Below, piece after piece: positions 6,336 to 45,419 of a DNA stretch of 64,000 nucleotides. The stretch lies in IMG/VR virus record IMGVR_UViG_3300019487_000319; one strand, written 5' to 3'. Positions within the stretch are counted from its first letter, which is position 1, and each line of letters starts with the position of its first letter. This stretch comes from a virus. Made by a program: the position numbers and the translations under genes. Under the pieces are notes generated by a model that saw only the letters and a program-made list of their open reading frames with translations, made no database searches and was not told the origin of the DNA.

Positions 6336-6415
6336 CCATCATACATATCATTTTAAATTCCGACCCACCAATAATAAAAATACGCTTGTATCATACAATT
6401 TCTATTTATTGCAAT

Positions 6416-6763: not shown

Positions 6764-6764
6764 T

Positions 6765-7321: not shown

Positions 7322-7322
7322 A

Positions 7323-7589: not shown

Positions 7590-7655
7590 ATACCGAAATA
7601 ATTTGTCTCGGAATATAATTTGTTATCTACTCTAAAAATCCCATATATTAATTTT

Positions 7656-8885
7656 TTAATCATTTCCAATGACTTTAAATTGTGGGCATGGAACAATAAA
7701 TTTACCACCAGCTTTTATGTAATCTGATTCTCTTTTTATAAATTCCGACAAAAAATGCCACGGGAGTATAAGTAAATAATCAGGTTTAGCTTTTCTCATT
7801 TCATCTTCCGAAAAAATTGGTATATTGGTTCCAACCGTCTTCAACCCCCACTTATACGGGCTTCTTTCGGCCATACCATCAATCAGTGTATGATCCAAAC
7901 CAAAATATTGTAACAACGTGTTTCCCTTGGTAGATGCACCATATCCCCACACCGTCTTTCCGTTAACTTTTTCAGTTTTAACAAAATCAACAACTTGTTT
8001 CTTTAGATTTTCTATTTTGTAATAGAAACTTTCCCAAACAACTAATTGTTTATCACCGACATGTCCATTGATCTTTTCATGAAACAACAGAGACTCCATT
8101 CTGAAAAGACAAACGTCTCTGTATGGTTGAGTTGAAAAGTTTTCTGTTTTAAACGTATCCTTTACAACGTATATTCTGAACGACCCACCATTTACATCGT
8201 TCAATTGACAATCTATAACTCTAAATCCATTTGACTCAAGAAGGTTTTTCATATTAGTCAATGTATAGTAGTAAATGTGTTCGTGACAAATGTTATCAAC
8301 TGCCACTTGATGAATCATAAGTGGTGTGTAACTCAATTGCAAAACAAACAGACCATCATCATCCATAACGTTATATACATCTTGTAAAAATGGATTTGGA
8401 TTATCCAAATCATAAAACATTGCTATACACGTCACTACTTTTGCTTTAAGATGGCCGAATTTTTGACTTCTATATGCTTTTTCACTAAAGTAATCTTGAA
8501 CAATAACATTTGCGTGGGTTTCGGATTCTTTCTTAAATGTATCATCGGCGGGGTCTATTCCGATTCGGATTATATTATCATCCAAAAAGCTTAAAAGAGT
8601 CCCATCGTTACAAGCAATATCCAACCATACATCATTTTCTTTTAGATTAACTAAACCACAAATCGAATGAACTATAGACTTTAGTTCATTTTTCATGGTG
8701 GCATTAATTCCGGAACGATACCAGTATCTTCCATACATAGTATCCAATGGTGCAGGCTTTTCTAGTCTGACCGCCCCTAAATTATTATCATAAACAAGTT
8801 TTATTTCTTGTTTAGGATGTGCTGTTTGACCTTCTTTAATAAAGTCAGACACATGTAATTCTCCGAGTGTAAATAATTCTTTCAT
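7656..8885 (-). CDS. NDP-hexose C-methyltransferase (TylC3-like)
   Basis: SAM-binding WLDIACNDGTLLSF plus the C-terminal C-methyltransferase block VWGYGASTKGNTLLQYFGL...PDYLLILPWHF...GGKFIVPCPQ. Confidence 0.75.
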   Translation of the reverse strand: MKELFTLGELHVSDFIKEGQTAHPKQEIKLVYDNNLGAVRLEKPAPLDTMYGRYWYRSGINATMKNELKSIVHSICGLVNLKENDVWLDIACNDGTLLSFLDDNIIRIGIDPADDTFKKESETHANVIVQDYFSEKAYRSQKFGHLKAKVVTCIAMFYDLDNPNPFLQDVYNVMDDDGLFVLQLSYTPLMIHQVAVDNICHEHIYYYTLTNMKNLLESNGFRVIDCQLNDVNGGSFRIYVVKDTFKTENFSTQPYRDVCLFRMESLLFHEKINGHVGDKQLVVWESFYYKIENLKKQVVDFVKTEKVNGKTVWGYGASTKGNTLLQYFGLDHTLIDGMAERSPYKWGLKTVGTNIPIFSEDEMRKAKPDYLLILPWHFLSEFIKRESDYIKAGGKFIVPCPQFKVIGND

Positions 8886-8886
8886 A

Positions 8887-9738
8887 TTACCAAATCCAAT
8901 TCTTTAAACATTCTTCCAACGATTCATGAACTTCTTTCATTTCTAATCCAACACTTTTTAATTTATCGGTATTCAACACCGTATTTGACCTTGGTGCCCT
9001 CACCATCGAATTAAATTGTTCCAAACTTTCGAAATATTGAAATTCCTTTTCTACTTTTAGCGTTTTCTTTATCATTTCTACAACTTCAGTTGTTGTGATT
9101 TCGCCTTTATTGGTTACATTATATATTCCAAACGGAACCTTGTTTTGTAGGGAATCCAAACACACCTTTACGTATTCTTTTTTATTTGATAAGGAATTCT
9201 TAACATTTAAAAGTGTGTTGTATCTTAACAATTTAGAAATGTAGTTTCTTTCATTGTTTCTTTCTTCAAATGGAATTCTCAATCTCCAAATGTATTTATC
9301 AGGCAACTCACTCAACATTTCTTCTCCTAATGCTTTCGTTCCACTGTAAAAACTACATGGTTGATTTTTAAAGGAAAAATTCGGTTCATCTTCCTCGGTA
9401 AATCCTCCATCTTTATATCCATTGTATATACAGCCCGATGAAACATGTCCCAACACTATGTTTTTTCTTGCACATAAAGTGGCTAATATTCTAGGAAATA
9501 CTACATTACCTGATAATGTTTCTGATTTAGCATCCTCACACACATCTACATTTGGTTTTCCGGTGTATCCAGCACAATTGATAATAGTGTCTATTTTAAA
9601 TGTAGATATAAATCTATCAATCTCATCGATATTTGCATCTATTGCAGACATTGGATATGACCCTATTCCACGACCTGCTAATTGTCGTTGAAATTCATGT
9701 CCTATATATCCACTAGACCCAAATAATAAAACTTTCAT
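8887..9738 (-). CDS. NAD(P)-dependent sugar-nucleotide reductase (RmlD-like dTDP-4-dehydro-6-deoxyhexose reductase)
   Basis: MKVLLFGSSGYIGHEF (Rossmann), SSGCIY and FYSGTKALGE (YxxxK). It is 283 aa and sits between the C-methyltransferase and rmlA. Confidence 0.7.
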   Translation of the reverse strand: MKVLLFGSSGYIGHEFQRQLAGRGIGSYPMSAIDANIDEIDRFISTFKIDTIINCAGYTGKPNVDVCEDAKSETLSGNVVFPRILATLCARKNIVLGHVSSGCIYNGYKDGGFTEEDEPNFSFKNQPCSFYSGTKALGEEMLSELPDKYIWRLRIPFEERNNERNYISKLLRYNTLLNVKNSLSNKKEYVKVCLDSLQNKVPFGIYNVTNKGEITTTEVVEMIKKTLKVEKEFQYFESLEQFNSMVRAPRSNTVLNTDKLKSVGLEMKEVHESLEECLKNWIW

Positions 9739-10598
9739 ACCAATCTCTCTAAGTAACTTTTATAATCACTTTTTGGTAGGCTTCCTACCGATTCCTTAAA
9801 TTGTTCTTTAGAAATGAAACCATTTACTAAACATGATTCTTCATAACATCCAATCATTATTCCCTGTCTTTCTTGGACAGATTGAATGTATGCTGATGCT
9901 TGAAATAATGTGGCTGGGGTACCGGCATCCAACCATGCTGTTCCTCTTTCCATAATTTTGGCTGTTAGTGTTCCTTCTTGCATATACATTTTTAACAAAT
10001 CCACTATTTCTAACTCCCCTCGTGTGGATGGCCTTAATGTATTAGCAAAATTAGAAGCCATTCCATCAAAATAATACAGACCCGGTATAGCATATTTACT
10101 CTTTGGTTGTATTGGTTTTTCTTCTAAAGAAATAACGTTACCCATTTTATCGAACTCAACTACACCATAAGCTCTTGGATTATTAACTTCGTATCCAAAC
10201 ACCGACGCTCCTTTTGGTGGAGTTATAACATATTTGTATTTATCAGGAGGTTGAATATTTCCATGAAATATGTTATCTCCGAGAATCAAACAGGAGGGTT
10301 TTTCTTCCAAGTAATCCTCAGCAATAATTAATGCCTGAGCTAATCCTTTTGGTTGGTCTTGAATCGCATATTGTATGCACAATCCCCATTTGTTTCCGTT
10401 TCCTAATAAGTTTTTGTAAAAATCAATGTATTGAGGGCTTGTTATCAATAATATCTCTTTTATTCCGTTATTGATTAAAGTGGTCAACGAATAATAGACC
10501 ATCGGTTTATCATATACAGGCAATAGTTGTTTATTAACCATTGTTGTCAATGGATATAATCGAGTTCCTGACCCACCTGATAAGATTATGCCTTTCAT
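9735..10598 (-). CDS. rmlA: glucose-1-phosphate thymidylyltransferase
   Basis: MKGIILSGGSGTRLYPLT...KQLLPVYDKPMVYY...PKGLAQA...LGDNIF...EKP..PKS.YA..GLYF. Canonical RmlA blocks at 287 aa. Confidence 0.9.
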   Translation of the reverse strand: MKGIILSGGSGTRLYPLTTMVNKQLLPVYDKPMVYYSLTTLINNGIKEILLITSPQYIDFYKNLLGNGNKWGLCIQYAIQDQPKGLAQALIIAEDYLEEKPSCLILGDNIFHGNIQPPDKYKYVITPPKGASVFGYEVNNPRAYGVVEFDKMGNVISLEEKPIQPKSKYAIPGLYYFDGMASNFANTLRPSTRGELEIVDLLKMYMQEGTLTAKIMERGTAWLDAGTPATLFQASAYIQSVQERQGIMIGCYEESCLVNGFISKEQFKESVGSLPKSDYKSYLERLV

Positions 10599-10850
10599 TT
10601 ATTTACTTTGATGATTTTGATTTAAATAATTAACAATTTCATTTACCAATTGATTACATCCTTCTTCGGATTCTAATAAAGCCAGATCGCCGTCGGTGAG
10701 GCCAAATACAAACACCTTTCCGAGAGTCCACACAGCAAGTTCAACATCTGTATCCTTACATGTAATAGAATGACTTCCAGTAAATGATTCCCCCATTGCT
10801 TTCAGGGGAAACGTTTCATTAAGTAGTTTGAATAGATGTCTGGTTTTCAT
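10599..10850 (-). CDS. hypothetical protein
   Basis: 83-aa ORF immediately upstream of rmlA on the same strand. Confidence 0.5.
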   Translation of the reverse strand: MKTRHLFKLLNETFPLKAMGESFTGSHSITCKDTDVELAVWTLGKVFVFGLTDGDLALLESEEGCNQLVNEIVNYLNQNHQSK

Positions 10851-11589
10851 TTTTGTTTAATCTTTCTTTCCAATTCCACACAAGAGGTTTTACAAACATT
10901 ATCTTTTGTGGTGATTTAGTTATTATGTATTCTTTTCCTTCGTCGTATCCATACTTCTCAAGAGCAGCTTTTGGGTCTTTTCTTGCTAATTCTCCCCTAG
11001 CTCCTGTTTCCTTTTTCCATAAACCCAATGGGCCTTTTCTAATAGAATTTCCTGATGTCTTTCCTACTTCTATCCAATTAGATGCACGGTATATCGCACC
11101 GTTTCTTAATTTCTCTCCATTATATTGTTCTACTCGTTCCGGTTGAACATAGGTTTCTATCATCAGTAACGGTTGATTATACTTCTCTTTCCATCTTTTT
11201 GCACCTTGTATGGATAATTGTTTTAAAACCATACTTCCGGTATTTTTTATGGTTATATTCTTTTGAATGAAACAACAACGAGAATTGTTTGCTAACATTC
11301 CTAAATTCTTGATTCTAGTTTCTTTATCCCATCCGATATAGTCATCTCGACAGGATATAGCAATAGTTGCAGAAGATAAGCCGATGGCTCCTATGTGATT
11401 ACCGGATTGAGTTTCGTAGATTAACCATCGTATGTTTCTGGTAGGGGAATCAGTATATTTTACGTAAGAATGGTATTTATCAATAGTTTCTCTGAATAAT
11501 TTGTTCTGTTCCGGAGAGGAACATTCTACTAAAAATACCGGCGTTTTTACAGTATCAGAGTAATCAAATATGGACAAAGAAAAAGACAT
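10819..11589 (-). CDS. DUF4338-family protein (Druantia DruA-type domain)
   Basis: Ordered blocks CRDDYIGWDKETR, LANNSRCCF, KNTGSMVL, LLMIETYVQPE and NGAIYRASNWIEVGKTSG match the DUF4338 consensus as I recall it (RD.%IGW / nNsRFL / N.aS / ETFVD / G.cYrAaNW..vG.T.G). Confidence 0.65.
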   Translation of the reverse strand: MSFSLSIFDYSDTVKTPVFLVECSSPEQNKLFRETIDKYHSYVKYTDSPTRNIRWLIYETQSGNHIGAIGLSSATIAISCRDDYIGWDKETRIKNLGMLANNSRCCFIQKNITIKNTGSMVLKQLSIQGAKRWKEKYNQPLLMIETYVQPERVEQYNGEKLRNGAIYRASNWIEVGKTSGNSIRKGPLGLWKKETGARGELARKDPKAALEKYGYDEGKEYIITKSPQKIMFVKPLVWNWKERLNKNENQTSIQTT

Positions 11590-11645: not shown

Positions 11646-12326
11646 TTAAACCGTAACTATTCCGCTATTTACTCTTAACATTGGGCATTTTGATAAACAA
11701 AGACGGGTGGTATCTATCATATATTGGTCTTTAGATATAGCTGCCAATTCAATAGAAGGGTCGCTCATACGAACATCTTCCCATTCTAATCTATAATCTG
11801 ATTTATATCTTACCAATGGGTCGTTCTTTGCTTCTTCTGCATTAGGGGCGTCATCAAATACTTGTTCTCCCATAAAACCTCTATGGAATTTAGAAAGGTG
11901 GAGAACCCAACCCTCCCAATTTTTATGAAGCCAATCTGCTTCATTTGGAAATCTTACATCCGAAACGAAAAATACCTTTTGAGATTTGGGGGAATCGTTC
12001 TGATGTTTTTTATATTCGGCCCTTAACACATCATCAACTTTCTTAATCCATATATCCGGGTCAACATTTTCTCTCATTCCACATCCTATCCACACCAAAC
12101 CCGGTCGAATGACTTTTTTCTCGTCAGTATTATCGGTAAAAGCCGAGATACCAAACAATTGTTGACAAACGGGGTCTGCTAATTTTTTTAATTCATCGGC
12201 AAAAGCAAGTTTTCTAACTTCATAACCTTCTTCCTGTAAAATTGATGATGCAATTTTACAAAAAGTATCCTTACCACATCTAGCATATCCAGAAATCCCT
12301 ATAACTGTAAAATTTTTGTTACTCAT
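11646..12326 (-). CDS. deoxynucleoside monophosphate kinase (T4 gp1-like P-loop kinase)
   Basis: FTVIGISGYARCGKDT (compare T4 gp1 LSGVKRSGKDT), a later FFVSDVRFPNE block, and similar length and architecture. Confidence 0.6.
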   Translation of the reverse strand: MSNKNFTVIGISGYARCGKDTFCKIASSILQEEGYEVRKLAFADELKKLADPVCQQLFGISAFTDNTDEKKVIRPGLVWIGCGMRENVDPDIWIKKVDDVLRAEYKKHQNDSPKSQKVFFVSDVRFPNEADWLHKNWEGWVLHLSKFHRGFMGEQVFDDAPNAEEAKNDPLVRYKSDYRLEWEDVRMSDPSIELAAISKDQYMIDTTRLCLSKCPMLRVNSGIVTV

Positions 12327-12338
12327 AATAATTTCCTT

Positions 12339-12866
12339 TCAACTTTCTCCATTTAATAAAACATTTTCTATTTCTTTGTCGTTTAATCCATATCCTTGGC
12401 AAATATTAACCAATTCTTCCATTCCGCCTTCAAGATTTATTAACATAAATACATATTCATTCGCACGATCGACAGAAATATCAAATTTTTTAGAAACTAA
12501 ATTCAATAATTCTTTGTTAAACTTGTCTTTTTTCGATTTTACCCACGGATAAAATTTTCTATCAGGTTGAACCAATGTAATTAACAGTGTATAGAATTGT
12601 TCCGATGGAATAATATCGAAATATTTGAATAACCATGCCATATCTTCGATGTAATTTGGATTCATGGATATTGCTCTCAGAAGCATGAAGTGAGAAAAAT
12701 TCTTCTTATCGAATTCTGATAAATTTTTATAATAGTTCGGGTCTTGGATTTCCTTAATTTGTTTGACGTGTTCAAACAAACTCACGGGCTTAATCTTTTC
12801 CATCGACTGGTCTTCCGAATCTTGACAATCTTTCGATTTTTTGGGCTCTTTGAGCTTTCTTTTCAT
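12339..12866 (-). CDS. possible clamp-loader small subunit (T4 gp62-like); otherwise hypothetical
   Basis: FSHFMLLRAISMNP...YTLLITLVQPDRKFYPWVKSK...FDISVDRANEYVFML resembles the gp62 pattern as recalled. Alternative start at Met22 (12803). No gp44-like partner is in the window. Confidence 0.35.
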   Translation of the reverse strand: MKRKLKEPKKSKDCQDSEDQSMEKIKPVSLFEHVKQIKEIQDPNYYKNLSEFDKKNFSHFMLLRAISMNPNYIEDMAWLFKYFDIIPSEQFYTLLITLVQPDRKFYPWVKSKKDKFNKELLNLVSKKFDISVDRANEYVFMLINLEGGMEELVNICQGYGLNDKEIENVLLNGES

Positions 12867-13059
12867 ACAATGTTAATTTTGATAACAATCCTGCTTGTGT
12901 AGATTGTAATGTATTTTGGTTTTTTGATAGTATAACGACATTCTCTTCCGATTTAGTTACTCTATTTTTTAACCAACGATATCTTTTTTCACAAAAAACT
13001 ATATATCCTGATACCAAAGAAACCACCAACAGTATAATTAGATATGTTATTATAGACAT
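12790..13059 (-). CDS. N-terminally membrane-anchored coiled-coil protein
   Basis: MSIITYLIILLVVSLVSGYIVF followed by a charged helical region. Its 3' end overlaps the next ORF's upstream start. Confidence 0.4.
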   Translation of the reverse strand: MSIITYLIILLVVSLVSGYIVFCEKRYRWLKNRVTKSEENVVILSKNQNTLQSTQAGLLSKLTLYEKKAQRAQKIERLSRFGRPVDGKD

Positions 13060-13103: not shown

Positions 13104-14312
13104 TTAACGTCCCACATCGTTAAAATATATCTGTCTAGCTTTTTCATAGGACATTCCACTCATATCTCCATAAAAGAGTTTCGTAGAGTTGAGCGGACCT
13201 GATGATTTTAATTTCTTATATCGTTCTATGGCTTTTGGTCGCCACCAATCCAATATGGCTTTTGTATCATACTGAAACAGTGGTTTCAAAATCAAATCCT
13301 TTTCTTCGATTTTATTTGATAGAAATTCTTTTGTGTTTTCGTAAAAACAAGAATAATATACACCCCGCTCAAATCCATGAACATAGTTAGATGATTTGAT
13401 TTGAGCAGAATCGAATATCATATTTATGACTCTTAATTTAGCTCCTGTAACAGGACCAGAAACATCTTCCTTCTGTGTCATCTTTTTCTCATATTCAGAT
13501 GATTTGTTTATCTTAATCCAATCATGCCACTTCTTATAAATTTTTTCTTCAGGTTGAATGGCAATCTTGCCGGCCGACGTTCCGCATTTATGCCACCATT
13601 TTAAACTATTATACATGGAGAATGAACCATAAAGGCTTGTCGTCGTCATTCCTACTAAAACAGAATCATACGTCCGTTTCCAAGCATCTCTGACTACTTT
13701 GGAAACTACCATTGCAGCGGATAACTTTCCTCCTAAGAATGGATAACCAAATGGTTGAGTAGAAACAATCGTTGTTCCAATTGCTGAATTAACTAATTTT
13801 CCTTCCTTGAGTTTATTATCCATTGACCATCCAATATAATTGTCTCTATCTCCAATGGAAATTACATCACTGGCAATTGAACATATTCCTAAGATTCTTG
13901 GATTATCAAGATTTCCATCATGGATCCAAAACTTCATAAATCTACCAGGTGCCTGATTAAATTCGGCAGAACTACAAAAATAACGAAGTGTGGTCCACAT
14001 TTTGTCATCTTCTTCGTTATCTATCAATTGAATTGTTGGAACCATGTTTTCAATTTCTTTTATGGTTCGTTCTTCATCCATGATATCTTCTGGTGCCCAT
14101 ATTTTTGCCTTGGCTACGCCAGCACGATTAAGGTGAGAATTCATAGCCTTTCTATCAGATATTTCTTCCCATTTTTTTCGAAAAGTAAATTCCTCAACAC
14201 TCAATGATTTAAGATAATCCATATTTTCTATCAACTTCCTTGTTTCTACATTAAGGTTAAATGAAGCTTGGGATGGTGCTGACTCAAAAAATATATCCGA
14301 TGTATCTGCCAT
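13104..14312 (-). CDS. DUF4338-family protein, long form (402 aa)
   Basis: GRFMKFWIHD...ILGICSIASDVISIGDRDNYIGWS...NSAIGTTIV...GGKLSAAMV...VLVGMTTTSLYGSFSMYNSLKWWHKCGTSAGK. Same block order as 10819-11589, but highly diverged. Confidence 0.6.
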   Translation of the reverse strand: MADTSDIFFESAPSQASFNLNVETRKLIENMDYLKSLSVEEFTFRKKWEEISDRKAMNSHLNRAGVAKAKIWAPEDIMDEERTIKEIENMVPTIQLIDNEEDDKMWTTLRYFCSSAEFNQAPGRFMKFWIHDGNLDNPRILGICSIASDVISIGDRDNYIGWSMDNKLKEGKLVNSAIGTTIVSTQPFGYPFLGGKLSAAMVVSKVVRDAWKRTYDSVLVGMTTTSLYGSFSMYNSLKWWHKCGTSAGKIAIQPEEKIYKKWHDWIKINKSSEYEKKMTQKEDVSGPVTGAKLRVINMIFDSAQIKSSNYVHGFERGVYYSCFYENTKEFLSNKIEEKDLILKPLFQYDTKAILDWWRPKAIERYKKLKSSGPLNSTKLFYGDMSGMSYEKARQIYFNDVGR

Positions 14313-15378: not shown

Positions 15379-17649
15379 TCATACCTTCTTTAAAAAAAGT
15401 CCGTTCATCGTTTTTGCAATCTGCCCAACCTGCGTAACATCAATCATACTAGCGTCTTTTCCATACATTGAACGGAATTGTTTTTCCGTTGTTTGGGTCG
15501 CCATTCCTAAAAATCCACCGAAAGCATTTACACTTTTATAATCCGATTCTATAAAATAACTCAGTATTTTAATACCATGTGACCGCATAATATTAACCTG
15601 ACGTTTGGTGTGTTTCACAGCTTCTTCACCACCATAAGAAAATCCTTTTCCACCGCCGCGGTCATAAAAACAATAACACGGTTCACCGTCTGAAATGTTT
15701 ACGAAGTAATGGTCTTCTCCATTGGATCGTTTATTTATTACACAATCCGTCATGATTGCTTCAAAGGCCAATCCTTCAGGAGTTGCACCACCAGCTTTCA
15801 AAAATGGAAAAATCTGGCGTATCTTACTTGGTTTATCAACTTCTGAATCATATATGATAACAATATATGGAAGACTTGCCTTATCCATATCATGTGTTGT
15901 ACGAAGAGAAACCGACACATGTAAATTTTGAATCATCGAACATGCTTGACACAATGCTGCCAACAGTGTCATCGTAGGCAACCATTTTGTACTACAATCC
16001 ATCGAACCACTGGCATCCACCGAAATATGAAGTTTGGCTGTATTAAACTGGTCCATCTGAATCTTATAAAAGAGATTTTCTACTCCTGCACCAAACTCCG
16101 CTATAATTCTTTTTTCTAATTTACCGGAAGAGCGTCTAATATATTTAATGATGTTGGTTTCATTTCTGATTTGAAGTTTTCTTCCCAATCTTTTACCCAT
16201 AGCAATACCCTTCATTATTGCTTCCAAATTTTCTTTATTAGGTTCAATTCCACCTAATGCTATTCCGGGAGATTCTTCATGTGTAGAAAGAGGAAAGATT
16301 TCCTTTCCAGAAAACAATAACGATTTTGTCAGATTTTTTACAACGATACAATCGACTTTTCTTATGACTCCTTCAGAATTTTCTGGACTAAAATGAGCAT
16401 GAGAAATATGAATTCCTGATTGTTCAACGATTTCTAAAATCTTAGCTCTTTCGGCCGTCAAGGTTTCCTTTACCGAATCAAAATCATTCATTAACATTTC
16501 TTTCGTCTGTTCAAAATGTTTTTGAATTTTATCTCGTTGTGATGGGGTGAATTCACTTAAATCACCACGAGGGTCATCTTCCGTAGTCTTACCATCTTCA
16601 ATTTTTTCGGCTTGAGTAGGCATGCCTCCCAATACGTCCTCAATTGATTCAGATTCCGACTCTGCCAACTTTTCTTTTTCAGATGATGGTTCACCGGTTT
16701 TTTCTTCTTTATTTTCGGAATGTTCTCCGGATTTGCTTATTTGTGTCGCGGACGGATCATCTTTATTCCCATCAGGTTCATTAGATGGTTCATTAGAATT
16801 ACCACTCAACACATTTTTTATCTGCTTAATTGTAGAATTGGCTCCACCACCGTTATTGGCTTCTTTTTTCTTTTTATCGATTGCATCTAATATCATTTCG
16901 ACAATTTTGAATGAGAGAGTCATTCTATCCGATGTAGTCTTTTCTCTTAAAATGGTTGATATATCGAATAAAGCATTTATCTTTCTTAATTCCGGCAAGG
17001 CATCTAAATCAGTCGCGGGATTGGTCAAATATATGATTCTATATTCGTAGGATTCCAAATTATTGAGACGATATCCCTTCGATTTAAGCGTTGCACTTAT
17101 TGCTTTGGAATTCCAAAGCTTATCATACAATGCTTTATAATATCCTCGGTATCCGGGACATGTTTTGAAGGCATAGGCATCAATATATCTGTCTTCGACA
17201 ACATTGAACATCATTTTACAAAAGTGAGCTACTTCTTCTTTTGTGACTCGCTTTTCTTTGCCCTTCTTATACAGTTCCGATGGAATCTTATTCCAAATAG
17301 ACCTAAATATATTAAAATCCGTTTTAACGATGTGCATTGATTCGTGTAATGCTAATCCGACACACCAATCAAAGTCGGATTTTTTTCTAACGGAAGCTGA
17401 CAAAAAAACAGTTTTTCCATCGGTTGCTCCGGTACTTCCGGCAGGTAAATATTTAACAGGTATGGATGGGTTTGTAGCAATGGATACAAAGTTAGAAATG
17501 ACTTTTCGATACGATGCCAATAAAATTAAATCCATTGTAAATAACTTACCCTCAGTTGTGGTTTCTTTATCATGATTTATATAATCATCGATAGACGTGC
17601 CGTCCAACCAGAAATCGGAATAACACGTATCTTTATCTACAACATCCAT
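15379..17649 (-). CDS. CobT-like VWA-domain protein (N-terminal HExxH region, acidic linker, C-terminal von Willebrand A domain)
   Basis: LALHESMHI (HExxH, aa 102-106), a long Glu/Ser/Lys-rich linker, and the MIDAS-type HISVDASGSMD motif. It lies directly upstream of an AAA+ partner. Confidence 0.7.
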   Translation of the reverse strand: MDVVDKDTCYSDFWLDGTSIDDYINHDKETTTEGKLFTMDLILLASYRKVISNFVSIATNPSIPVKYLPAGSTGATDGKTVFLSASVRKKSDFDWCVGLALHESMHIVKTDFNIFRSIWNKIPSELYKKGKEKRVTKEEVAHFCKMMFNVVEDRYIDAYAFKTCPGYRGYYKALYDKLWNSKAISATLKSKGYRLNNLESYEYRIIYLTNPATDLDALPELRKINALFDISTILREKTTSDRMTLSFKIVEMILDAIDKKKKEANNGGGANSTIKQIKNVLSGNSNEPSNEPDGNKDDPSATQISKSGEHSENKEEKTGEPSSEKEKLAESESESIEDVLGGMPTQAEKIEDGKTTEDDPRGDLSEFTPSQRDKIQKHFEQTKEMLMNDFDSVKETLTAERAKILEIVEQSGIHISHAHFSPENSEGVIRKVDCIVVKNLTKSLLFSGKEIFPLSTHEESPGIALGGIEPNKENLEAIMKGIAMGKRLGRKLQIRNETNIIKYIRRSSGKLEKRIIAEFGAGVENLFYKIQMDQFNTAKLHISVDASGSMDCSTKWLPTMTLLAALCQACSMIQNLHVSVSLRTTHDMDKASLPYIVIIYDSEVDKPSKIRQIFPFLKAGGATPEGLAFEAIMTDCVINKRSNGEDHYFVNISDGEPCYCFYDRGGGKGFSYGGEEAVKHTKRQVNIMRSHGIKILSYFIESDYKSVNAFGGFLGMATQTTEKQFRSMYGKDASMIDVTQVGQIAKTMNGLFLKKV

Positions 17650-17652
17650 AAT

Positions 17653-18627
17653 TTAGAATTTATGGGTTTTTAACCCTCCCTTTTTTCCCTTGATAGGATT
17701 AGGTGCGGCAGAAGCATTGGTATCAATATATTTCTGAACCAATTGTTTGATATAAAGTCTTTCGGATTCCGTTCCGCCATCTTTATCAAACATTGGATAG
17801 ATGGATAATTCTGCTAACTCTTTAAGAGAAAATCCGTCAATAACCATCTGAGCCATTTCAATAACAATACCGGTGGGAATGAATCGGGAAATAGGAGCGT
17901 CGTCTAATTTAGCCTGTTTCTTTGTATCATGTGAAATATTACAAATATCATTGAAGTAGTCCTTGTTTTCTTCAAAATCATTTTCAAATAAAATTTTCAA
18001 TAACTTCATCTCTCCGTCAAAATCCAACGGTTCCATTTCAACGATGACCGGAAATCGACGAGACGTGGCTTCATCGATGACTTTCGTTGCGGTATATTGT
18101 AATCCTATGTTTGTAGTAGAAACAAACGTAATACTGGTAGGAATCTTGATGATTGAGGATTCTACTGATTCATCCAACCGTAAATATCTTTGTGTAGAAT
18201 CCAAGACCGGCATCAATATATTCCAAGCATCATGATGTCCACGAGAAAGTTCATCTAGTAGAATTACTGCATTCTCAGTTTGTATTGCTCTAACAAATTC
18301 CGATGGATTAAATATCGTTCCTTGCTCTTTTTTGAATGTGGTATTTCCAATAAGTGTTGCCCGGGCATCTTGTGTAGAACCAAGATTGAAATAGAAGAAG
18401 GGTCTATTCAATGCTTTTGCGACGGATTGAGCGGCTTTGGTTTTTCCGCATCTTGTCGGTCCTACTATTAAAACGTTTCGACCTCGTAACACTGCCCATA
18501 CCAAACCCTTCCATTGTGTTTCGTCTATAATCAAATCCTTTGGAATTAAAGACTTGGAATCAGTAAGCATTTGCGTAACATCTACGTTTGACATATCGTT
18601 GAGAATGGAGTTTTTCATTACCTCCAT
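17653..18627 (-). CDS. CobS/MoxR-type AAA+ ATPase
   Basis: Walker A is VLIVGPTRCGKTKAA and Walker B is VILLDELSR. At 324 aa it is adjacent to the VWA protein, as in CobS/CobT and MoxR/VWA pairs. Confidence 0.75.
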   Translation of the reverse strand: MEVMKNSILNDMSNVDVTQMLTDSKSLIPKDLIIDETQWKGLVWAVLRGRNVLIVGPTRCGKTKAAQSVAKALNRPFFYFNLGSTQDARATLIGNTTFKKEQGTIFNPSEFVRAIQTENAVILLDELSRGHHDAWNILMPVLDSTQRYLRLDESVESSIIKIPTSITFVSTTNIGLQYTATKVIDEATSRRFPVIVEMEPLDFDGEMKLLKILFENDFEENKDYFNDICNISHDTKKQAKLDDAPISRFIPTGIVIEMAQMVIDGFSLKELAELSIYPMFDKDGGTESERLYIKQLVQKYIDTNASAAPNPIKGKKGGLKTHKF

Positions 18628-18656: not shown

Positions 18657-18688
18657 GAAAGAAAAAACGTGTTGTGAACCAACACGTT
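18657..18688 (-). terminator. rho-independent terminator after 18706-19209
   Basis: The minus strand reads AACGTGTTGgttcaCAACACGTT (9-bp stem) followed by TTTTTCTTTCTT. A TTGACA box follows immediately. Confidence 0.6.
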
Positions 18689-18705
18689 CTATATTAGAAA
18701 GCGAA

Positions 18706-19481: not shown

Positions 19482-20270
19482 TTATTTTAATTTAGGTGTT
19501 TTCTTAGGATTTACTACCAATTTTTTATCAACCTTATGTTTCAGAGGCTTGACTTTGTTCTCAGTTTCCTTGAAATCTCTTTGGTGCTTGATATCCTTTT
19601 CATCTACCGTTTTCATTGGTTGATTTGGCTGGTCTTCATCCTTTTTGACTGCCTTCTCATTGTAATCTTTTTCATCGTTTTTGGTGTCGCCGACTTCTTT
19701 TCTTTTTGGCTTATTATGTTGTGGCAAATCACTCTTGTCTGATTTATCTTCCAAATGGTTCATCGCCTTTTCTCTTGCTTGGTCCACCTTCGTATCCTCT
19801 ACATCTTGGAAATTAGCTTTTACAAAATTCTTTACTTGTTCCCACGTCAAGGCTATGGCACGAACTCGGTCATCGAGATTTACCATTGCTTCAATGTTGA
19901 ACATGTCTTCGGCAGTTTGAGAAATACGAACACGGAGTAGCGGCTTTGCATCTACATTTAAATCGTTATGGTCATCCCAATAAACCAAAAAATCTTTATC
20001 AATTTCTTTTACAATTTTACTAAGTTGATCCATCATTTCGGCTCTAGTTGCATCCAATCGTTCGTTACCCGTTTTCTTATATCCCTTATCGATGGTTTCT
20101 TTTTCTTCTTTGGTTGGTTCGGGTTTTGTTACGTTGGTTATTTCAGATAAAACCTTCTTGACAATTTTTCGTAACGACTCCTTGACAACTTGTTTTTTAG
20201 ACGTGGCTCTCTCGGTTAGGACTTCATCCCAAGATTCTCTTACAAGTTTTTTTAATTGGTCTTTATTCAT
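19482..20270 (-). CDS. hypothetical highly charged protein with a conserved N-terminal leader
   Basis: 262 aa, N-terminus MNKDQLKKLVRESWDEVL. The remainder is Lys/Glu/Asp-rich. Confidence 0.55.
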   Translation of the reverse strand: MNKDQLKKLVRESWDEVLTERATSKKQVVKESLRKIVKKVLSEITNVTKPEPTKEEKETIDKGYKKTGNERLDATRAEMMDQLSKIVKEIDKDFLVYWDDHNDLNVDAKPLLRVRISQTAEDMFNIEAMVNLDDRVRAIALTWEQVKNFVKANFQDVEDTKVDQAREKAMNHLEDKSDKSDLPQHNKPKRKEVGDTKNDEKDYNEKAVKKDEDQPNQPMKTVDEKDIKHQRDFKETENKVKPLKHKVDKKLVVNPKKTPKLK

Positions 20271-20304: not shown

Positions 20305-21078
20305 TCAACTAAAAAACGGATTTTCGGTCTTATTATCGACTTTGATTTCCTCTATTTGTTCCTTATAGATAGTATCTTTTGGATAGGGTAAAAATGGGTG
20401 TTTTAGATTGGCTAATATTTTCTTCTTTTCGACCTTATTTCCCAATAAATACACATATCGATGTTTGGTGGATTCTTTTTTCCTCCAGAACGTTTTACCG
20501 ATGGTCTTTTTCAAATGTTCTACGTTATGAGAACCATAAGTGGAAAAGGCGGTTCTTGAATGCATCCATTTATACGGTGGCCCGATTTCTGAAATAGAAT
20601 AATTAGGCATTAAAGCTAATGAAGAATTCCCTTGATAGTAAAATCCTGAAGCCTGATAGATGGTTCCTCTGTGACCTTGTTCATTATCAGCATAACTTAT
20701 TACGGCTTTAACGTTAGGAAGATGCTTTGTCAACATCGATAAAGTCTTTGATATACAATAACTTTCTATATTTTTGCCGTATCCATCATAAATGACTAAT
20801 CGGGTTAATTCCGTAACTTGTTCCAAGGTTATGAGTGGAGATATAGATTCGGCTGCACTTCTTCCAACCGGGCCGCCGTAGATGACTGTTCCGATTAATT
20901 TTTCCTCATTGCCTTCAATGAATTGGGAGGGAGTTTTTGTATTAATGAAGATACCAAAAGCCACATCACATAGGGTCCATTTGTGACTATAATGATTTTT
21001 TTCGACAAATGATTTACCTATATCTTTAGGAATTACCCGTATTGACACGAGTGATGTATCGACATAACCTTCTTCCAT
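20305..21078 (-). CDS. Mom-like acyltransferase-fold protein (candidate DNA-base-modifying enzyme)
   Basis: FVEKNHYSHKW, AFGIF, IGTVIYGGPVGR, ELTRLVI..GYGKNIESY and VISYADNEQGHRGTIYQASGFYYQG. This block order is that of the phage Mu Mom family as I recall it. Confidence 0.6.
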   Translation of the reverse strand: MEEGYVDTSLVSIRVIPKDIGKSFVEKNHYSHKWTLCDVAFGIFINTKTPSQFIEGNEEKLIGTVIYGGPVGRSAAESISPLITLEQVTELTRLVIYDGYGKNIESYCISKTLSMLTKHLPNVKAVISYADNEQGHRGTIYQASGFYYQGNSSLALMPNYSISEIGPPYKWMHSRTAFSTYGSHNVEHLKKTIGKTFWRKKESTKHRYVYLLGNKVEKKKILANLKHPFLPYPKDTIYKEQIEEIKVDNKTENPFFS

Positions 21079-21092: not shown

Positions 21093-21389
21093 TTACACCA
21101 GTTTGGATTCCAACAAAAGATTTTTTAATTCGGTTTCGTTTTTATATATTACCAGCTTAATGTGAGGGTGGACGCTTTGGATATAATTCTTTAAAAACGT
21201 TGTTAGTGAAACCGACCCGTTCTGATGAATGAATCCTATACTACATGCATCTACTTTACCCATATTTACATCCAACAAAAAACTTTTATAGTCGTTATAT
21301 GCATTTGTTACACATTTAACAGAGGATATTGTTGATTTTACATTGTTTTTTTCGTCGAAGATGAAAGCTTTTAATTTTGGAGTATTCAT
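21093..21389 (-). CDS. hypothetical protein
   Basis: 98-aa ORF, co-oriented with its neighbours. Confidence 0.5.
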   Translation of the reverse strand: MNTPKLKAFIFDEKNNVKSTISSVKCVTNAYNDYKSFLLDVNMGKVDACSIGFIHQNGSVSLTTFLKNYIQSVHPHIKLVIYKNETELKNLLLESKLV

Positions 21390-21763: not shown

Positions 21764-21833
21764 ATAAGAAATCGCCCACCTTATGTGGACTCATATTATA
21801 AATATGATTGGGTTTTTCTAAAACTATAAAGAA

Positions 21834-24800
21834 TTAAGATTTTGGTTTGATTTCGCAAACATCATTGCTGCAAAACCTTTCTACGTCCGCTTCTTCGTGT
21901 TTTATTCCTTTAAACCTCACAGGTTTTAATTTAGAGGATAGTTCATCGTAAGTTTCAATAGAAATGGTTTCGTAGGGCATCTGTTCGTATGCACCCTTTT
22001 CTGTAATAGGCAAAAATGAAATACCTTTTAGTTGATATTGATAGAAATTTAAAAGATGTTTGATTTGGTTCGCTTCATCCTTTCTAAAAGAAATGGTACA
22101 TGAAACTTGATTGTCTGCCCAATATCTTTGTAAGAACGCTGCCAGTGCAGCTTGTTCCCATATACTTACATCTTTAACTGGTCTTAGATTATCACCAATC
22201 TTGACAGGAATTTCTACAACAACAGTGGTATCTTCCGACCCCTTACAATCTTCGATGTGATATCCGGCTTCTTTTAATGGTCCAACTAAATCACTATATT
22301 TTGAAAGTCGCATTCTCCTTATGTAACAAACATTTTCTGGAAAATGAACGCCGGGGGTCGCACCGGCGACCAAACTCACCGTTCCACTTGGTTTGATAGA
22401 AGTCTTCTTTATACTTTTTGGTATGGCTAACCAATCGGAATATACTTCATCATAATACTCAATTTTTTTGTATCCCTTTTCGCACCATGTTTTAAATTCG
22501 TCTATTCCACGGTTAGCTAAAAATTGAACTATACCACTCATACTACAACCTATTCTTCTATTTCTTAACATTACTCTATTAGTTTCCGGCCAATGAGTTT
22601 GACCCAACGTCACTGTCTTGGCATACAAATATGCATATTTAAGTGTAACGAGAAAATCATCAAGATTTTCATGATTATTTGGGAATGTTTCAACTAAGCA
22701 GCATAATTCATAGCTTTCCAATGATTGTTCGAGACAATTGATTATTATAATCCCATCTACTTGATTATCAGAAACTTGTGTAATAATTGAATAATTATAA
22801 TTATCATCTACTGTAATGTTATATACATCTTCTTTTTCTGATAAAAATGTCACCGATTTAACTCGATGATTGTATCCTTTTTCTTTTTCAATTAATTCTT
22901 TGTAGCTTTTTAGAACGTAAGGATTTTCGGTTTTAAGAGATTCTGGATTTCTTATTCTAAAAGAAATTTTTCTATTTCGGCATTCTCTTTCCCATTCTTT
23001 CTTTAAAGGATTCCTATCCAAAGATTGTTTCAAGTCTTTGAATATCATAATTTGTTGATGTAATGTGTCTCTTTGTTTATTCTCAAAGTGGATCTTCTGC
23101 CCCTCTTTTCTAAATTTGATTTGTCCTTCGTGTTTATTTTGACATGAATGTGAACAAAATACAACATGGCGACTTCCCCAAGATACTATCATTTCATCAT
23201 TACATGTAATACATTTCTTCTTTGCAAACATTCGTTCGTTTACCCAAACTGTTTCTAAATCTGTCTTTTTTGATTGTTCTATATAGTATTCTTTATCCCA
23301 TTCTTTTTTATTTTTTTTCATTTTTGATGAATATAGTTCTCTACATTCGTCAGTATGAGAATTGGACAATCTTTTTAAATACTCTACATCTTTGCATCTT
23401 TCTTTCGTTTTTTCTCCAATTAATTTTTTCGATTCTTCCGTATGTTGTCTTCCAAACATAGGATTGTTTTCTCCTTGATTATCGTGGTCAGCATGAAATT
23501 TACAATGATCCTTAAATGTCATTAATTCTAGGTTATCTATAGAATTATTTAATCCATTATAATCTTTGTGATGAACAACTATTCCACCTTTACACCACCC
23601 ATTTGATTTCGATTCATTATATAGTTCGTTCCATTTTTCTGGATTGTGAAATTTAACAATTAAACGATGTTCCATTTCTCTTTTCCTTTTTACATCATTT
23701 GTATCCATGCTTACAATATAATATTTATTAGGATTATCCTTAAACATCTTTTCTTTTCTTTTTTGAAATCTTGGAAGAGAGTCTCCAATTTTTAAATCTT
23801 TAGCACGACACGTTTCTCCATTTAATAAAATCATTTTGTGGTCTGGAGTGACTCTTAATTTTCCTCCTTCTTCAAATTCTATTTCTACCAATTCTGCATT
23901 TTCTCTAGTCTTTCTTGGATTTCTTCCCCACTTTATTTCTACCATTCCACTTTTATTCATAGAATATACTGCAACATCATTTCCTTCTTCTGCTAATTCT
24001 TTTATAGAAACTGCATTTCTTCCGTCTGCAACTGCAATGAGAGTGTCTCCGGTTAAACAAGGATTACCCCCTTCAACCCGATGGTCTTTGTGGTCCATTC
24101 CATTATTCATCCTTGAATATCCTTTCATATTTTCCAACCAAGCATATCCCGGCTCACCATTTACTTTAGTTCTCTCGGCAGCATTGGAATAATCCATTCC
24201 CAAATCACAAAAGATAGAATTGTTTGATGTCCATCCATATTCAGACCGATGTGGATTCTTTTTATAATTTTTTAAATCCAAATATTCTTCTGAGTTGTAG
24301 TCACCAAATACAATTTCAGCCGTTCTTCTTACATTTCCAGCAACAACACACTTTCCAATAAGATTCATAACATCAACAATAGTAGTTGTTGTTATTAGGT
24401 GTCCTACATTTTTATCAAAAATTACACGAAGGGTTTTATGAAGTTCAATCAAGGGTTGAGAACCGGATGAAACACCACCGAACCCTTTAATTGGTTCGCC
24501 CGCGGCTCTTATTAATGAATAATCGAAATGAACTTCCTTGGTTTCAAGTAGATAGGATTCGATTAAAAGTTTTGTTGATTCGACCCAACCCTCTCTCGTA
24601 TCAGCAATTTTATAAATATTGTCGGGTGATGGGCTTGGTTTCCCTACTTTAATTTTCCCTGACCCTTTACAATCAAATCCAACACCAACACCCAACATTG
24701 ACATATCCATCAAAAAACAGAATGATTTTGACACATCCTCTTTTATGGTTGAGGTCGAAACGAATGCACAGTTATTTAGTGCGGCATATAAATGTCTTTC

Positions 24801-25133
24801 TTCGGTTATGGGGCTTCCCATCGACCACAATCCTCTTCCGGGAGGAAGAAATTTCATATTGAACATTCTATCATACATCTCTTGGGCAGATTTTTGAGCC
24901 TTTATTGAATTCCATCCAAGTTTATGTTGTTCAATCCATACCTTTTGCATGTTGAACGTTCCTTCTACTACTCGTTGAATTGTTTCCCACCATCTTTCAT
25001 TATCTCCATTGGCTTTCAAACGGGAGTATGTTCTTAAATAAACTAATGCACCTAGTCCATTGAATCCGAACGGTGGTTTTTGTCTTTTATATTTATCGAG
25101 GAAGCTATCAGTCAGCCGAAATTTACCATCCAT
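21834..25133 (-). CDS. nrdJ: class II (B12-dependent type) ribonucleotide reductase precursor, interrupted by an intein
   Basis: RTYSRL...ERWWETIQRVVEG at the N-terminus and a C-terminal Cys pair (CSNDVCE). The active-site motif GGNP/CLEQSLESYELC is split by 441 aa. The exteins total 658 aa. Confidence 0.85.
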   Translation of the reverse strand: MDGKFRLTDSFLDKYKRQKPPFGFNGLGALVYLRTYSRLKANGDNERWWETIQRVVEGTFNMQKVWIEQHKLGWNSIKAQKSAQEMYDRMFNMKFLPPGRGLWSMGSPITEERHLYAALNNCAFVSTSTIKEDVSKSFCFLMDMSMLGVGVGFDCKGSGKIKVGKPSPSPDNIYKIADTREGWVESTKLLIESYLLETKEVHFDYSLIRAAGEPIKGFGGVSSGSQPLIELHKTLRVIFDKNVGHLITTTTIVDVMNLIGKCVVAGNVRRTAEIVFGDYNSEEYLDLKNYKKNPHRSEYGWTSNNSIFCDLGMDYSNAAERTKVNGEPGYAWLENMKGYSRMNNGMDHKDHRVEGGNPCLTGDTLIAVADGRNAVSIKELAEEGNDVAVYSMNKSGMVEIKWGRNPRKTRENAELVEIEFEEGGKLRVTPDHKMILLNGETCRAKDLKIGDSLPRFQKRKEKMFKDNPNKYYIVSMDTNDVKRKREMEHRLIVKFHNPEKWNELYNESKSNGWCKGGIVVHHKDYNGLNNSIDNLELMTFKDHCKFHADHDNQGENNPMFGRQHTEESKKLIGEKTKERCKDVEYLKRLSNSHTDECRELYSSKMKKNKKEWDKEYYIEQSKKTDLETVWVNERMFAKKKCITCNDEMIVSWGSRHVVFCSHSCQNKHEGQIKFRKEGQKIHFENKQRDTLHQQIMIFKDLKQSLDRNPLKKEWERECRNRKISFRIRNPESLKTENPYVLKSYKELIEKEKGYNHRVKSVTFLSEKEDVYNITVDDNYNYSIITQVSDNQVDGIIIINCLEQSLESYELCCLVETFPNNHENLDDFLVTLKYAYLYAKTVTLGQTHWPETNRVMLRNRRIGCSMSGIVQFLANRGIDEFKTWCEKGYKKIEYYDEVYSDWLAIPKSIKKTSIKPSGTVSLVAGATPGVHFPENVCYIRRMRLSKYSDLVGPLKEAGYHIEDCKGSEDTTVVVEIPVKIGDNLRPVKDVSIWEQAALAAFLQRYWADNQVSCTISFRKDEANQIKHLLNFYQYQLKGISFLPITEKGAYEQMPYETISIETYDELSSKLKPVRFKGIKHEEADVERFCSNDVCEIKPKS
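22737..24059 (-). mobile_element. intein (441 aa) carrying an HNH homing endonuclease with a NUMOD3-like motif
   Basis: It begins with Cys1 (CLTGDTLIAV, codon TGT at 24059-24057) and has block B RVTPDHKM. The HNH region is VVHHKDYNGLNNSIDNLELMTFKDHCKFH, followed by GENNPMFGRQHTEESKK. It ends VYNITVDD...GIIIIN, followed by the +1 Cys (codon at 22736-22734). Confidence 0.85.
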
Positions 25134-25260: not shown

Positions 25261-26673
25261 TCAGTTGAAATCATCATCGCTAGGAATTTCTGCTTCGTCT
25301 AACGACTTATTTTTCTTAATTTTATTCCACTGGTCCCTAAGAACATTTTTAACTGTATCTTCGGCACTGCTCATCTTTTGTTGAACTTCGATTCCTTCTC
25401 TCGTAGCGGGGTCAAACACTTGAATGTTTCCGTTAGATGAATCAAATATTGTTGGGAATGTCAAACCATCGGCACCGAAACGATTCTTCATTATATGAAT
25501 TCTTGCCGTCCCGGAGGCTTTGTCTTCCATTTTTCTTGATAAAGATAAAATTAAATCTCCGGTCATAATTTTTCTATAAGAATCGGCTACATTATGAGCT
25601 TGGATGACATCTTCTTCATGTGAAGAACGATTAGATTGAGATGCCGTCCAAATAGGAATCTGAAGTTCACCGGCAACGGCACGGAGTTCTTCATAGACAC
25701 TACCGGCTTCAGAATATGAGTTAGAATTCCTTTCAGCTGTCATTGGTCTTAATAAGTCCGCATAATCTACAACAGCCATATCAATTTTTTCTCCGGTTAA
25801 CATTTGAATCCTCTCAATGTGAGTCTTTAAATTATGAGGAGCAATGGTTTTCATTGGAAAATACTTAATAAAAAGTTTTCCAGTAACCTCGGCAATCTTT
25901 TTCTTAACTACATCAACATTCTTTCTTATACTTTGAAAGTCAATTCCTGTGAAGCAGGCATCATATCTTAATCCGACATAATTTTCATTTAATTCCAAGG
26001 TAAAGTGAACAACGTTTTTACCTTTCTTCATTGCCTCGGCACCTAATCTAGCCAATACCCATGATTTACCCGAACCAGCAGGAGCCACTATAAATGCTAA
26101 TTCACCCTTAGCCAAACCACCATCACAAACTTGGTCTATAATATCCCATCCAGTTGGAACTGTGTCTCTAGCCATTTCACTCATACGCTTTTCAACGTCT
26201 TCAAAATAAACGTGGCCCAGATTTCTTTCGGTTCCAGCCTTCAAGGCTTCATCAATGACGACTTTTATGTTTTCGTATTGTCCCTGTTTTAAATAATCCA
26301 CCGAATTAAGAATAGCGTTTTTCAATTTTTGATTTTTGCAAAATTCCAAAAAGGTTTCTTTTACAAACTTTAAATCAGTATCGTTTATCTTACTATAAAC
26401 CAACTTCAACTGGTCTATTGCTGACCGTTTTAATACTTCATTCTCTATTGAATCGGATTTTATTTTGAATACGTTAAGTGTAGGAATGTCTTTGTATTGC
26501 ACAAAATATTCCTTCGTGGTTTCAACTATCCATTTATTTGCATCGGTTTCCCAATATTCTACATTGAGAATGTCGAAAATTCGTTCCAAAAATAATCGGT
26601 CTGAAGTCAATGCTGTTACGCATTTGGTTTGAAATTCCTGTCCAAATTTCTTGAGATTATCTATTTCTGCCAT
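25261..26673 (-). CDS. replicative DNA helicase (DnaB / T4 gp41 family)
   Basis: Walker A is FIVAPAGSGKSW and Walker B is DMAVVDYADLL. IWTASQSNR is also present. 470 aa. Confidence 0.8.
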   Translation of the reverse strand: MAEIDNLKKFGQEFQTKCVTALTSDRLFLERIFDILNVEYWETDANKWIVETTKEYFVQYKDIPTLNVFKIKSDSIENEVLKRSAIDQLKLVYSKINDTDLKFVKETFLEFCKNQKLKNAILNSVDYLKQGQYENIKVVIDEALKAGTERNLGHVYFEDVEKRMSEMARDTVPTGWDIIDQVCDGGLAKGELAFIVAPAGSGKSWVLARLGAEAMKKGKNVVHFTLELNENYVGLRYDACFTGIDFQSIRKNVDVVKKKIAEVTGKLFIKYFPMKTIAPHNLKTHIERIQMLTGEKIDMAVVDYADLLRPMTAERNSNSYSEAGSVYEELRAVAGELQIPIWTASQSNRSSHEEDVIQAHNVADSYRKIMTGDLILSLSRKMEDKASGTARIHIMKNRFGADGLTFPTIFDSSNGNIQVFDPATREGIEVQQKMSSAEDTVKNVLRDQWNKIKKNKSLDEAEIPSDDDFN

Positions 26674-34064: not shown

Positions 34065-34076
34065 TTTTTATTATAC

Positions 34077-36683: not shown

Positions 36684-36684
36684 A

Positions 36685-45341: not shown

Positions 45342-45371
45342 ATCACCATATAAATATGTTACATATCTTCT

Positions 45372-45405: not shown

Positions 45406-45419
45406 TTATATTTTGTTAA

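Follow-up and report, generated by a model that had tools for sequence, protein, structure and literature searches.

Does the mom-like gene of an uncultivated virus encode an enzyme that modifies DNA and, if so, would it do this in the way known for Mom of phage Mu? This question is raised by a stretch of 64,000 nucleotides, IMG/VR virus record IMGVR_UViG_3300019487_000319, which is called the window below. An open reading frame (ORF) of 257 amino acids (aa) in this window had been pointed out, from the letters of the DNA, as a Mom-like gene situated next to a replication module. The gene and its product are as follows:

20305..21078, minus strand: Mom-family GNAT gene, an ATG-started ORF encoding a protein of 257 aa with an isoelectric point (pI) of 9.1.

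Assignment of the 257-aa protein to the Mom family

From the N- to the C-terminus the protein contains the blocks EKNHYSHKW (aa 26-34), the glycine-rich GTVIYGGPVGRS (aa 63-74), ELTRL (aa 90-94) and ISYADNEQGHRGTIYQASGFYYQG (aa 127-150). All blocks named in the original prediction are therefore present in this ORF, and in the same order. The family was assigned by four independent tests, based on Pfam, PHROG, a sequence search against the Protein Data Bank (PDB) and a Foldseek search with an AlphaFold2 model, and Mom was the top match in each of them. The Pfam family Mom (PF25680) matched the protein with an E-value of 4.6e-43 and 147.7 bits, the cut-off being 27.1 bits, and the match covered profile positions 3-202 of 202. 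PHROG 1384, described as "Mom-like DNA modification protein", gave an E-value of 1.6e-46. A plain phmmer search against the PDB sequences returned the Mu Mom chain 8bv8_A as its sole significant match (E 2.8e-6).

The AlphaFold2 model, for which 30 relatives were used as input, has a mean predicted local distance difference test score (pLDDT) of 83.9. Foldseek placed both chains of 8bv8 (Mu Mom) on top of the list, with E-values of 2.3e-12 and 6.8e-12. Ordinary GNAT acetyltransferases, SpeG being the first, appeared from an E-value of 1.8e-5 onwards, seven orders of magnitude behind Mu Mom. Because of this large difference the protein does not fall into a clade of GNATs that acetylate proteins or small molecules, a placement that would have spoken against the original prediction. 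No match was obtained when the Mom gene itself was included in a PADLOC/DruA scan. Together these results strongly indicate that the proposed family assignment was right, and we consider it almost certain that the 257-aa protein is a member of the Mom family. Current Pfam would label the gene automatically, and its plain annotation is Mom-like DNA modification protein.

Comparison of the window protein with Mu Mom

In an older model of its chemistry, Mom was proposed to use acetyl-CoA and iron (PMC7261163). A study of 2026 replaces this model and reports that Mu Mom transfers glycine from Gly-tRNA(Gly) to adenine N6 within SAS contexts of double-stranded DNA, after which the glycyl adduct on the base rearranges to give N6-carbamoylmethyl-adenine (PMC13219725). 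The picture of Mu Mom given with the original prediction predates this result. According to the same study, R111 and S124 of Mu Mom are essential, S124A is catalytically dead, and R151A has no detectable activity; activity is drastically reduced in H58A, Y59A, Y159A, W181A and W48A and greatly reduced in D149A (PMC13219725). In addition, activity is abolished upon deletion of a helix-turn-helix (HTH)-like insertion (residues ~175-209), and a basic N-terminal arm may help in binding tRNA (PMC13219725).

The window protein aligns with Mu Mom at 25% identity. Conservation of individual residues was determined in two samples: the 120 closest database relatives of the 257-aa protein, and a diverse alignment of 75 full-length representatives sampled around it. 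The features of interest, all encoded on the minus strand and placed by alignment with Mu Mom, are:

20989..20994, minus strand: H29-Y30, equivalent to Mu H58-Y59; present in 120/120 close relatives and in 74/75 diverse representatives.
20800..20802, minus strand: R93 in ELTRL, equivalent to Mu R111 (essential in Mu); present in 75/75 diverse representatives.
20761..20763, minus strand: S106 in KNIES, equivalent to Mu S124 (essential in Mu); present in 71/75 diverse representatives.
20641..20697, minus strand: signature SYADNEQGHRGTIYQASGF, aa 128-146, aligned with Mu Mom without gaps.
20464..20601, minus strand: basic insertion, aa ~160-205, with W171 (Mu W181) and H173 (Mu H183); placed also with the AlphaFold2 model.
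20377..20388, minus strand: PYPK motif, aa 231-234, common to the C-terminus of Mu Mom.

The window protein has all of seven residues that Mu Mom requires to be fully active (H58, Y59, R111, S124, D149, Y159 and W181), and they are invariant in the 120 close relatives. The signature SYADNEQGHRGTIYQASGF contains D131 (Mu D149) and Y141 (Mu Y159), together with E133 and H136, which occupy the positions of Mu R151 and R154, respectively. Thus, within the strongest motif and without any gap in the alignment, the site of R151 is taken by a Glu, which is conserved in 119 of the 120 relatives, and the site of R154 by a His that is conserved in all 120. The insertion, which is the counterpart of the HTH-like insertion of Mu Mom (175-209), forms two short helices in the AlphaFold2 model (aa 174-181 and 186-193), and the pI of the region of aa 160-235 is 10.0. 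The protein starts at about residue 34 of Mu Mom and therefore does not have the 33-residue basic N-terminal arm, while behind the PYPK motif it has an acidic tail of 23 aa that is absent from Mu Mom. The site of W48, a dimer residue in Mu Mom, is an Asp here and is variable among the diverse representatives.

The Mom family divides into a Mu-type and a His-type branch

An exhaustive HMMER scan of 1.84 billion cluster representatives yielded 1962 clusters at E <= 1e-3. The consensus of the signature in the 75 diverse representatives is SYADPxxGHxGxIYQATNWxY. The His of GH-x-G is found in 74 of these 75 proteins, Mu Mom being the outlier. The equivalents of R111 and Y159 are each present in 75/75, and the site of R151 is variable (S, E, N, A and others). 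Homologues similar to Mu Mom, which come from Pseudomonas phage JD024, Arthrobacter phage Maureen, Aeromonas phage AsFcp_1 and Methylophilales phage Melnitz, have the motif SFAD-x-R-x-G without the His. With Mu Mom counted, R151 is kept in four of the five Mu-type sequences. Judged by these sequence motifs, the Mom family splits into a Mu-type branch (SFAD-x-R-x-G) and a His-type branch (SYAD-xxx-GH-x-G), and the window protein belongs to the latter. Since it belongs to the His-type branch and does not have the R151 that is essential in Mu, its acyl donor and its product, and likewise the base and the sequence context that it targets, may differ from those of Mu. The caution in the original prediction against assuming Mu chemistry for this gene is supported by the Glu at the R151 site, the invariant His at the R154 site and the separate branch.

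Predicted function and alternative explanations

The 257-aa enzyme is predicted to carry out DNA modification of the general Mom kind, which we regard as probable. By analogy with Mu Mom, the enzyme would bind double-stranded DNA via its basic HTH-like insertion and flip out the target base, most likely an adenine. It would then transfer an acyl group from an activated donor, most likely an aminoacyl-tRNA, to the exocyclic amine of the base, most likely N6 of adenine. If glycine were the donated group, as in Mu, the adduct would rearrange to N6-carbamoylmethyl-adenine. The modification would take place after replication, in a short sequence context, and may protect the DNA of the phage against restriction by the host and against other nucleases. 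The neighbouring genes for replication and nucleotide metabolism (see below) fit an enzyme that acts on newly made DNA. Family, fold, the seven conserved residues and the synteny are observed here; the DNA substrate is inferred from homology at 25% identity, and the tRNA donor and the anti-restriction role are inferred as well. The low identity to Mu Mom is one of several points that weigh against the proposed function. Others are the charge reversal from R151, the replacement of which by Ala leaves Mu Mom without detectable activity, to Glu; the replacement of R154 by an invariant His; the absence of the basic arm (residues 1-33 in Mu, proposed to assist in tRNA binding) and of the dimer residue W48; and the fact that we found no published activity for any His-type member.

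How closely the enzyme would follow Mu Mom is a narrower matter. It might be an exact functional copy that makes N6-carbamoylmethyl-adenine from Gly-tRNA(Gly). The equivalents of R111, S124, D149, Y159, H58 and Y59 and the insertion are indeed as in Mu, and two randomly chosen metagenomic Mom homologues, which may be of either branch, were reported to be active in vivo (PMC13219725). The substitutions of R151 by Glu and of R154 by His and the missing N-terminal arm argue against such a copy, as does the existence of a separate motif class of Mu-type homologues in which R151 is largely kept, and we therefore hold it to be possible but doubtful. A Mom-fold DNA modifier with a different chemistry, using another aminoacyl-tRNA, an acyl-CoA donor or another base, is favoured by the presence of GH-x-G in 74 of the 75 diverse representatives and its absence from Mu, and by the reversed charge at the R151 site. 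Moreover, the donor and acceptor specificity of the GNAT superfamily cannot be read from structure according to the authors of the 2026 study (PMC13219725). However, nothing points positively to a specific other donor, and at the rest of the active site the residues are the same as in Mu, so that this explanation, too, is put forward only tentatively.

The acceptor could also be something other than DNA, such as a charged tRNA, a protein or a metabolite, in which case Mom would only be a family name. Only one branch of the family has been characterised, and TacT and FemX are examples of GNATs that use tRNA with non-DNA acceptors (PMC13219725). Against this, the protein has retained, in basic form, the insertion that is proposed to bind DNA, and the equivalent of R111, for which a contact with the substrate adenine has been proposed, does not vary. 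Moreover, ordinary acetyltransferases match the structure far less well, and the gene lies in the replication module in every relative examined. These observations make a non-DNA acceptor rather improbable. A decaying or inactive remnant, for which the loss of R151 is the only indication, is highly improbable in view of the 63 invariant columns over 30 relatives, the constant length and the syntenic position described in the next section. Modification of DNA of the general Mom kind is the reading that we prefer.

Conserved position of the Mom gene in very large T4-like phages

A word-indexed search retrieved 549 homologues that are 60-90% identical to the window protein; most of them have an identity of 60-68% and a length of 255-260 aa. 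Across 30 relatives with identities of 60-83% and a constant length, 63 alignment columns are invariant. The number of homologues in this identity range together with their constant length indicates purifying selection. The window protein is also encoded on a contig of 340,916 bases. A megablast search with the 15-27 kb region of the window against 50,697 phage records returned nothing near-identical, and the best Mom match from an isolate, that of Polaribacter phage P12002L, has an identity of 42%. An annotated or detectable Mom-like gene is carried by 303 phage records, which include those of the large myophages Klebsiella RaK2 (346 kb), Aeromonas AsFcp_1 (221 kb) and Methylophilales Melnitz (141 kb), and the cyanomyovirus S-SCSM2R has been reported to carry a Mom-like gene (PMC12801897). 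That a T4-like or jumbo phage carries a Mom gene is thus not new in itself.

Synteny was analysed in five loci (L002-L006) that encode the identical protein or relatives down to 64% identity, on contigs of 61, 105, 215, 267 and 269 kb; proteins of these loci also occur on contigs of up to 365 kb. In all five loci the genes are arranged in the order gp32, UvsX, exonuclease, DnaB, ribonucleotide reductase, a small ORF, Mom, a Lys/Glu-rich protein, a MoxR AAA protein, a ~756-aa vWA protein and a long DruA. A short DruA follows further along in four of the five, locus L005 ending before that point, and in three of those four a clamp-loader subunit lies between both DruA genes. The Mom gene is therefore part of the syntenic core in a lineage of very large uncultivated T4-like phages. 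At least nine further contigs, recognised by their identical lengths, are in both the Mom and the short-DruA match lists, which we read as co-occurrence of the two genes.

Other genes were seen in these loci. On the 215-kb contig (L005, GCA_902731595.1) a second Mom-family gene, encoding 409 aa with a GH-x-G motif, is located at 11680-12909, two genes downstream of the Mom orthologue. In the relatives at 64% identity (L003/L004) a gene for an N6/N4 DNA methyltransferase adjoins that of the exonuclease, and one for an ordinary GNAT acetyltransferase precedes the reductase (1618-2349, 6412-6873).

Two neighbouring genes of the DruA family

Two genes of the DruA (DUF4338) family are located 6-10 kb from the Mom gene:

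13104..14312, minus strand: long DruA/DUF4338 gene, 402 aa; Pfam DruA E 2.2e-19, PADLOC DruA1 E 5.9e-18; syntenic in L002-L006.
10819..11589, minus strand: short DruA/DUF4338 gene, 256 aa; Pfam DruA E 5.1e-25.

Both match PADLOC DruA1 models and they are homologous to each other (hhalign probability 96.7%). In the window, the genes for a clamp-loader subunit and a dNMP kinase stand between the two. The N-terminal half of the short protein matches the PHROG of the long one, and its C-terminal half matches PHROG 1384, the Mom-like group, with an E-value of 3.1e-5. Comparison of the diverse Mom profile with the short DruA family using hhalign gave an E-value of 4.5e-5 and a probability of 69% over 185 columns, and the His of HY, the catalytic Arg, the Ser and the G-x-IY-x-A-x-NW motif were in register. 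In addition, a Foldseek search with an AlphaFold model of the short protein (pLDDT 82.5) returned Mu Mom (8bv8) as the first match in the PDB with an E-value of 7e-6, the next GNAT following at 1.3e-4. In BFVD, Mom of Salmonella phage FSL SP-031 ranked third (E 4.2e-8), and generic GNATs appeared near 2e-4.

The relationship escapes more shallow comparisons. Of the Mom profiles compared with the short DruA, only the diverse one gave a significant match, the shallow profile of the Mom clade being insufficient; at the profile depth used, the diverse profile did not match the long DruA significantly. BLASTP between Mom and the short DruA was also not significant, and no meaningful match was found when the sequence profile of the short DruA was compared with the PDB, which indicates that the link to Mom needs fold or profile-profile methods. 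Together, these results identify the short DruA as a GNAT intermediate between the DruA and Mom families, and the relationship between both families is moderately supported. The DUF4338 domain had been called a GNAT domain earlier (PMC10853773), and DruA-like proteins had been noted in Synechococcus phages. In our searches the long DruA was also found in Pelagibacter myophages and T4-like Synechococcus phages; the short one gave no match in a tblastn search against the 50,697 isolated-phage records.

DruB-E, a DruE-type helicase and DUF1998 were not found among the scanned window ORFs of at least 90 aa. With no DruB-E partners among these ORFs, the two genes do not constitute a Druantia system. 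A joint function of Mom and DruA is speculation. In one such scenario, which we think unlikely, the three GNATs (the His-type Mom, the short DruA/Mom and the long DruA) would together install one or more base acylations different from that of Mu, possibly in a charged-tRNA-dependent manner. If this were true, it would by extension make DruA of type I Druantia an acyltransferase of nucleic acids akin to Mom, and thereby provide a testable activity for a defence protein that is so far unexplained.

The two DUF4338 genes had been cited in the original prediction, together with a deoxynucleoside monophosphate (dNMP) kinase, as context for DNA hypermodification. All three genes are at hand, and the link to the DUF4338 genes proved justified, the short one being Mom-like, but the kinase does not carry the weight given to it:

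11646-12326, minus strand: dNMP kinase (PHROG 139 E 1.2e-24; weak match to Pfam DNMK), context only.

We rejected it as weak evidence for hypermodification, since T4-like phages routinely have such a gene and a MazZ-like domain is encoded in that neighbourhood in relatives. This domain, a MazZ-like dGTP diphosphohydrolase domain (dGTP_diPhyd_N), is located at 19292-19711 in L003/L004 between the clamp-loader and short DruA genes, the place where the window has the dNMP kinase.

Genomic context and expression of the Mom gene

Also in agreement with the original prediction, the gene has a T4-like replisome setting. Just upstream, on the same strand, lie the genes for a class II ribonucleotide reductase, a DnaB-like helicase (25261-26673), a 5'-3' exonuclease, a UvsX/RecA homologue and gp32. 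That the DNA belongs to a T4-like myophage is confirmed by genes for a tail sheath, a tail tube and a T4-type baseplate in other parts of the window. The following features surround the Mom gene:

19482..20270, minus strand: Lys/Glu-rich gene, 262 aa, a conserved neighbour directly downstream of Mom.
21774..21790, minus strand: terminator-like hairpin upstream of a six-gene unit with Mom (consensus scan only, weak evidence).
18664..18690, minus strand: terminator-like hairpin with an 11-bp stem that closes the six-gene unit before the MoxR gene (consensus scan only).

The Lys/Glu-rich protein is 45% identical to the C-terminal half of a 529-aa protein encoded at the same position in L003. Searches of Pfam and PHROG gave no match above threshold for it, DUF6459 remaining sub-threshold (E 0.0012, 19.6 bits; cut-off 27).

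A gene for a Com-like zinc-finger regulator (Cys4) overlapping the start of Mom was not found. The upstream ORF (21093-21389, 98 aa) contains only two Cys residues, does not overlap the Mom gene and is not conserved in relatives. The arrangement of six co-directional small genes between two weakly supported hairpins, without Com, suggests that Mom is expressed with the replication genes and is not a guarded late gene. Such expression would be tolerable for a strictly lytic phage. A promoter scan gave 34 sites where 32.4 were expected, which is chance level. No tRNA genes were found in a search of the window; this result is neutral and uninformative, since a host tRNA would serve. SAS trinucleotides, the target context of Mu Mom, had observed/expected ratios of 0.79-1.01 and gave no clear signal.

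Other features of the window

The gene for the class II (B12-dependent) ribonucleotide reductase (21834-25133, minus strand) is interrupted by an intein of ~415 aa with HNH and NUMOD3 homing-endonuclease motifs; in relatives the reductase is uninterrupted and has ~885 aa. At 15379-18627 (minus strand) a gene for a MoxR-type AAA ATPase is followed by one for a 756-aa protein with the vWA metal-site motif VDASGSM and a long acidic linker. All relatives examined have this pair conserved downstream of Mom, and it resembles the CobS/CobT-like pairs of marine myophages.

A cluster of ten sugar genes occupies positions 167-10598. Among its products are two family-2 glycosyltransferases, a family-11 (fucosyl-type) glycosyltransferase, two methyltransferases, one of which is of the sugar C-methyltransferase type, an NAD-dependent sugar dehydratase/epimerase, and RmlD-like and RmlA-like enzymes. 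The cluster could serve the synthesis of a surface glycan or glycosylation of DNA. In the region 32682-37437 (minus strand) an ORF of 460 aa, which matches only the C-terminal part of phage DNA polymerases, adjoins an ORF of 868 aa without a family match, and a free-standing NUMOD3 endonuclease-like gene (36685-37437) lies beside them. This suggests a polymerase gene that was split or invaded by a homing endonuclease. Finally, auxiliary genes at 43612-53350 encode a cytidylyltransferase-like protein, an Hsp20 small heat-shock protein, a 5'-deoxynucleotidase (NT5C), a NUDIX hydrolase and a 673-aa protein with an N-terminal polymerase-beta-type nucleotidyltransferase domain.

Comparison with known systems

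It took until 2026 for the chemistry of Mom to be worked out, and then only for the Mu-type branch; the branch of the window gene differs at a residue that is essential in Mu. With the gene firmly placed in its replication module and two DruA-type relatives close by, the lineage described here is suited to asking whether the DNA adducts made by Mom-like enzymes are of more than one kind, and also whether DruA of Druantia acts on nucleic acids. As a member of a known family the gene is ordinary, but its setting is less so. What raises it above the routine is that it belongs to the His-type branch, that it is a fixed core gene in very large uncultivated phages, and that two DruA-type GNATs are encoded nearby, one of which bridges DruA and Mom.

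With Mu Mom (PDB 8bv8) the window protein shares the GNAT fold with its HTH-like insertion, the active-site residues, the C-terminal PYPK motif and a basic character. Its gene belongs to a cluster of replication genes, whereas mom is the last, tightly regulated late gene of Mu. FemX and TacT, which are tRNA-using GNATs, also have the GNAT fold and, like Mom in its proposed mechanism, use a charged tRNA at its 3' end (PMC13219725), but their acceptors are peptidoglycan precursors or a tRNA-bound amino acid instead of DNA and they have no HTH-like insertion; neither of them was among the top Foldseek matches of the AlphaFold2 model. The likeness to DruA (DUF4338, PF14236) of type I Druantia concerns the two neighbouring genes, both of which pass the Pfam threshold, while the Mom gene belongs to another Pfam family.

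The Mom proteins of AsFcp_1 and Melnitz are of the Mu type and not of the His type, and their genes have a genomic position different from that of the window gene. Lower-identity Mom-like matches, the motif type of which was not checked, come from Bacillus phages SerPounce and Riggi, Listeria phage A511 and Twort-like phages of Staphylococcus. The protein of Polaribacter phage P12002L is a His-type Mom-like protein. The window protein's own group is that of the His-type proteins of PHROG 1384 and PF25680, which have the same consensus signature and a similar length and architecture. Within this group the window clade differs in having G145 where most proteins have an Asn, and in being carried by much larger, T4-like genomes.

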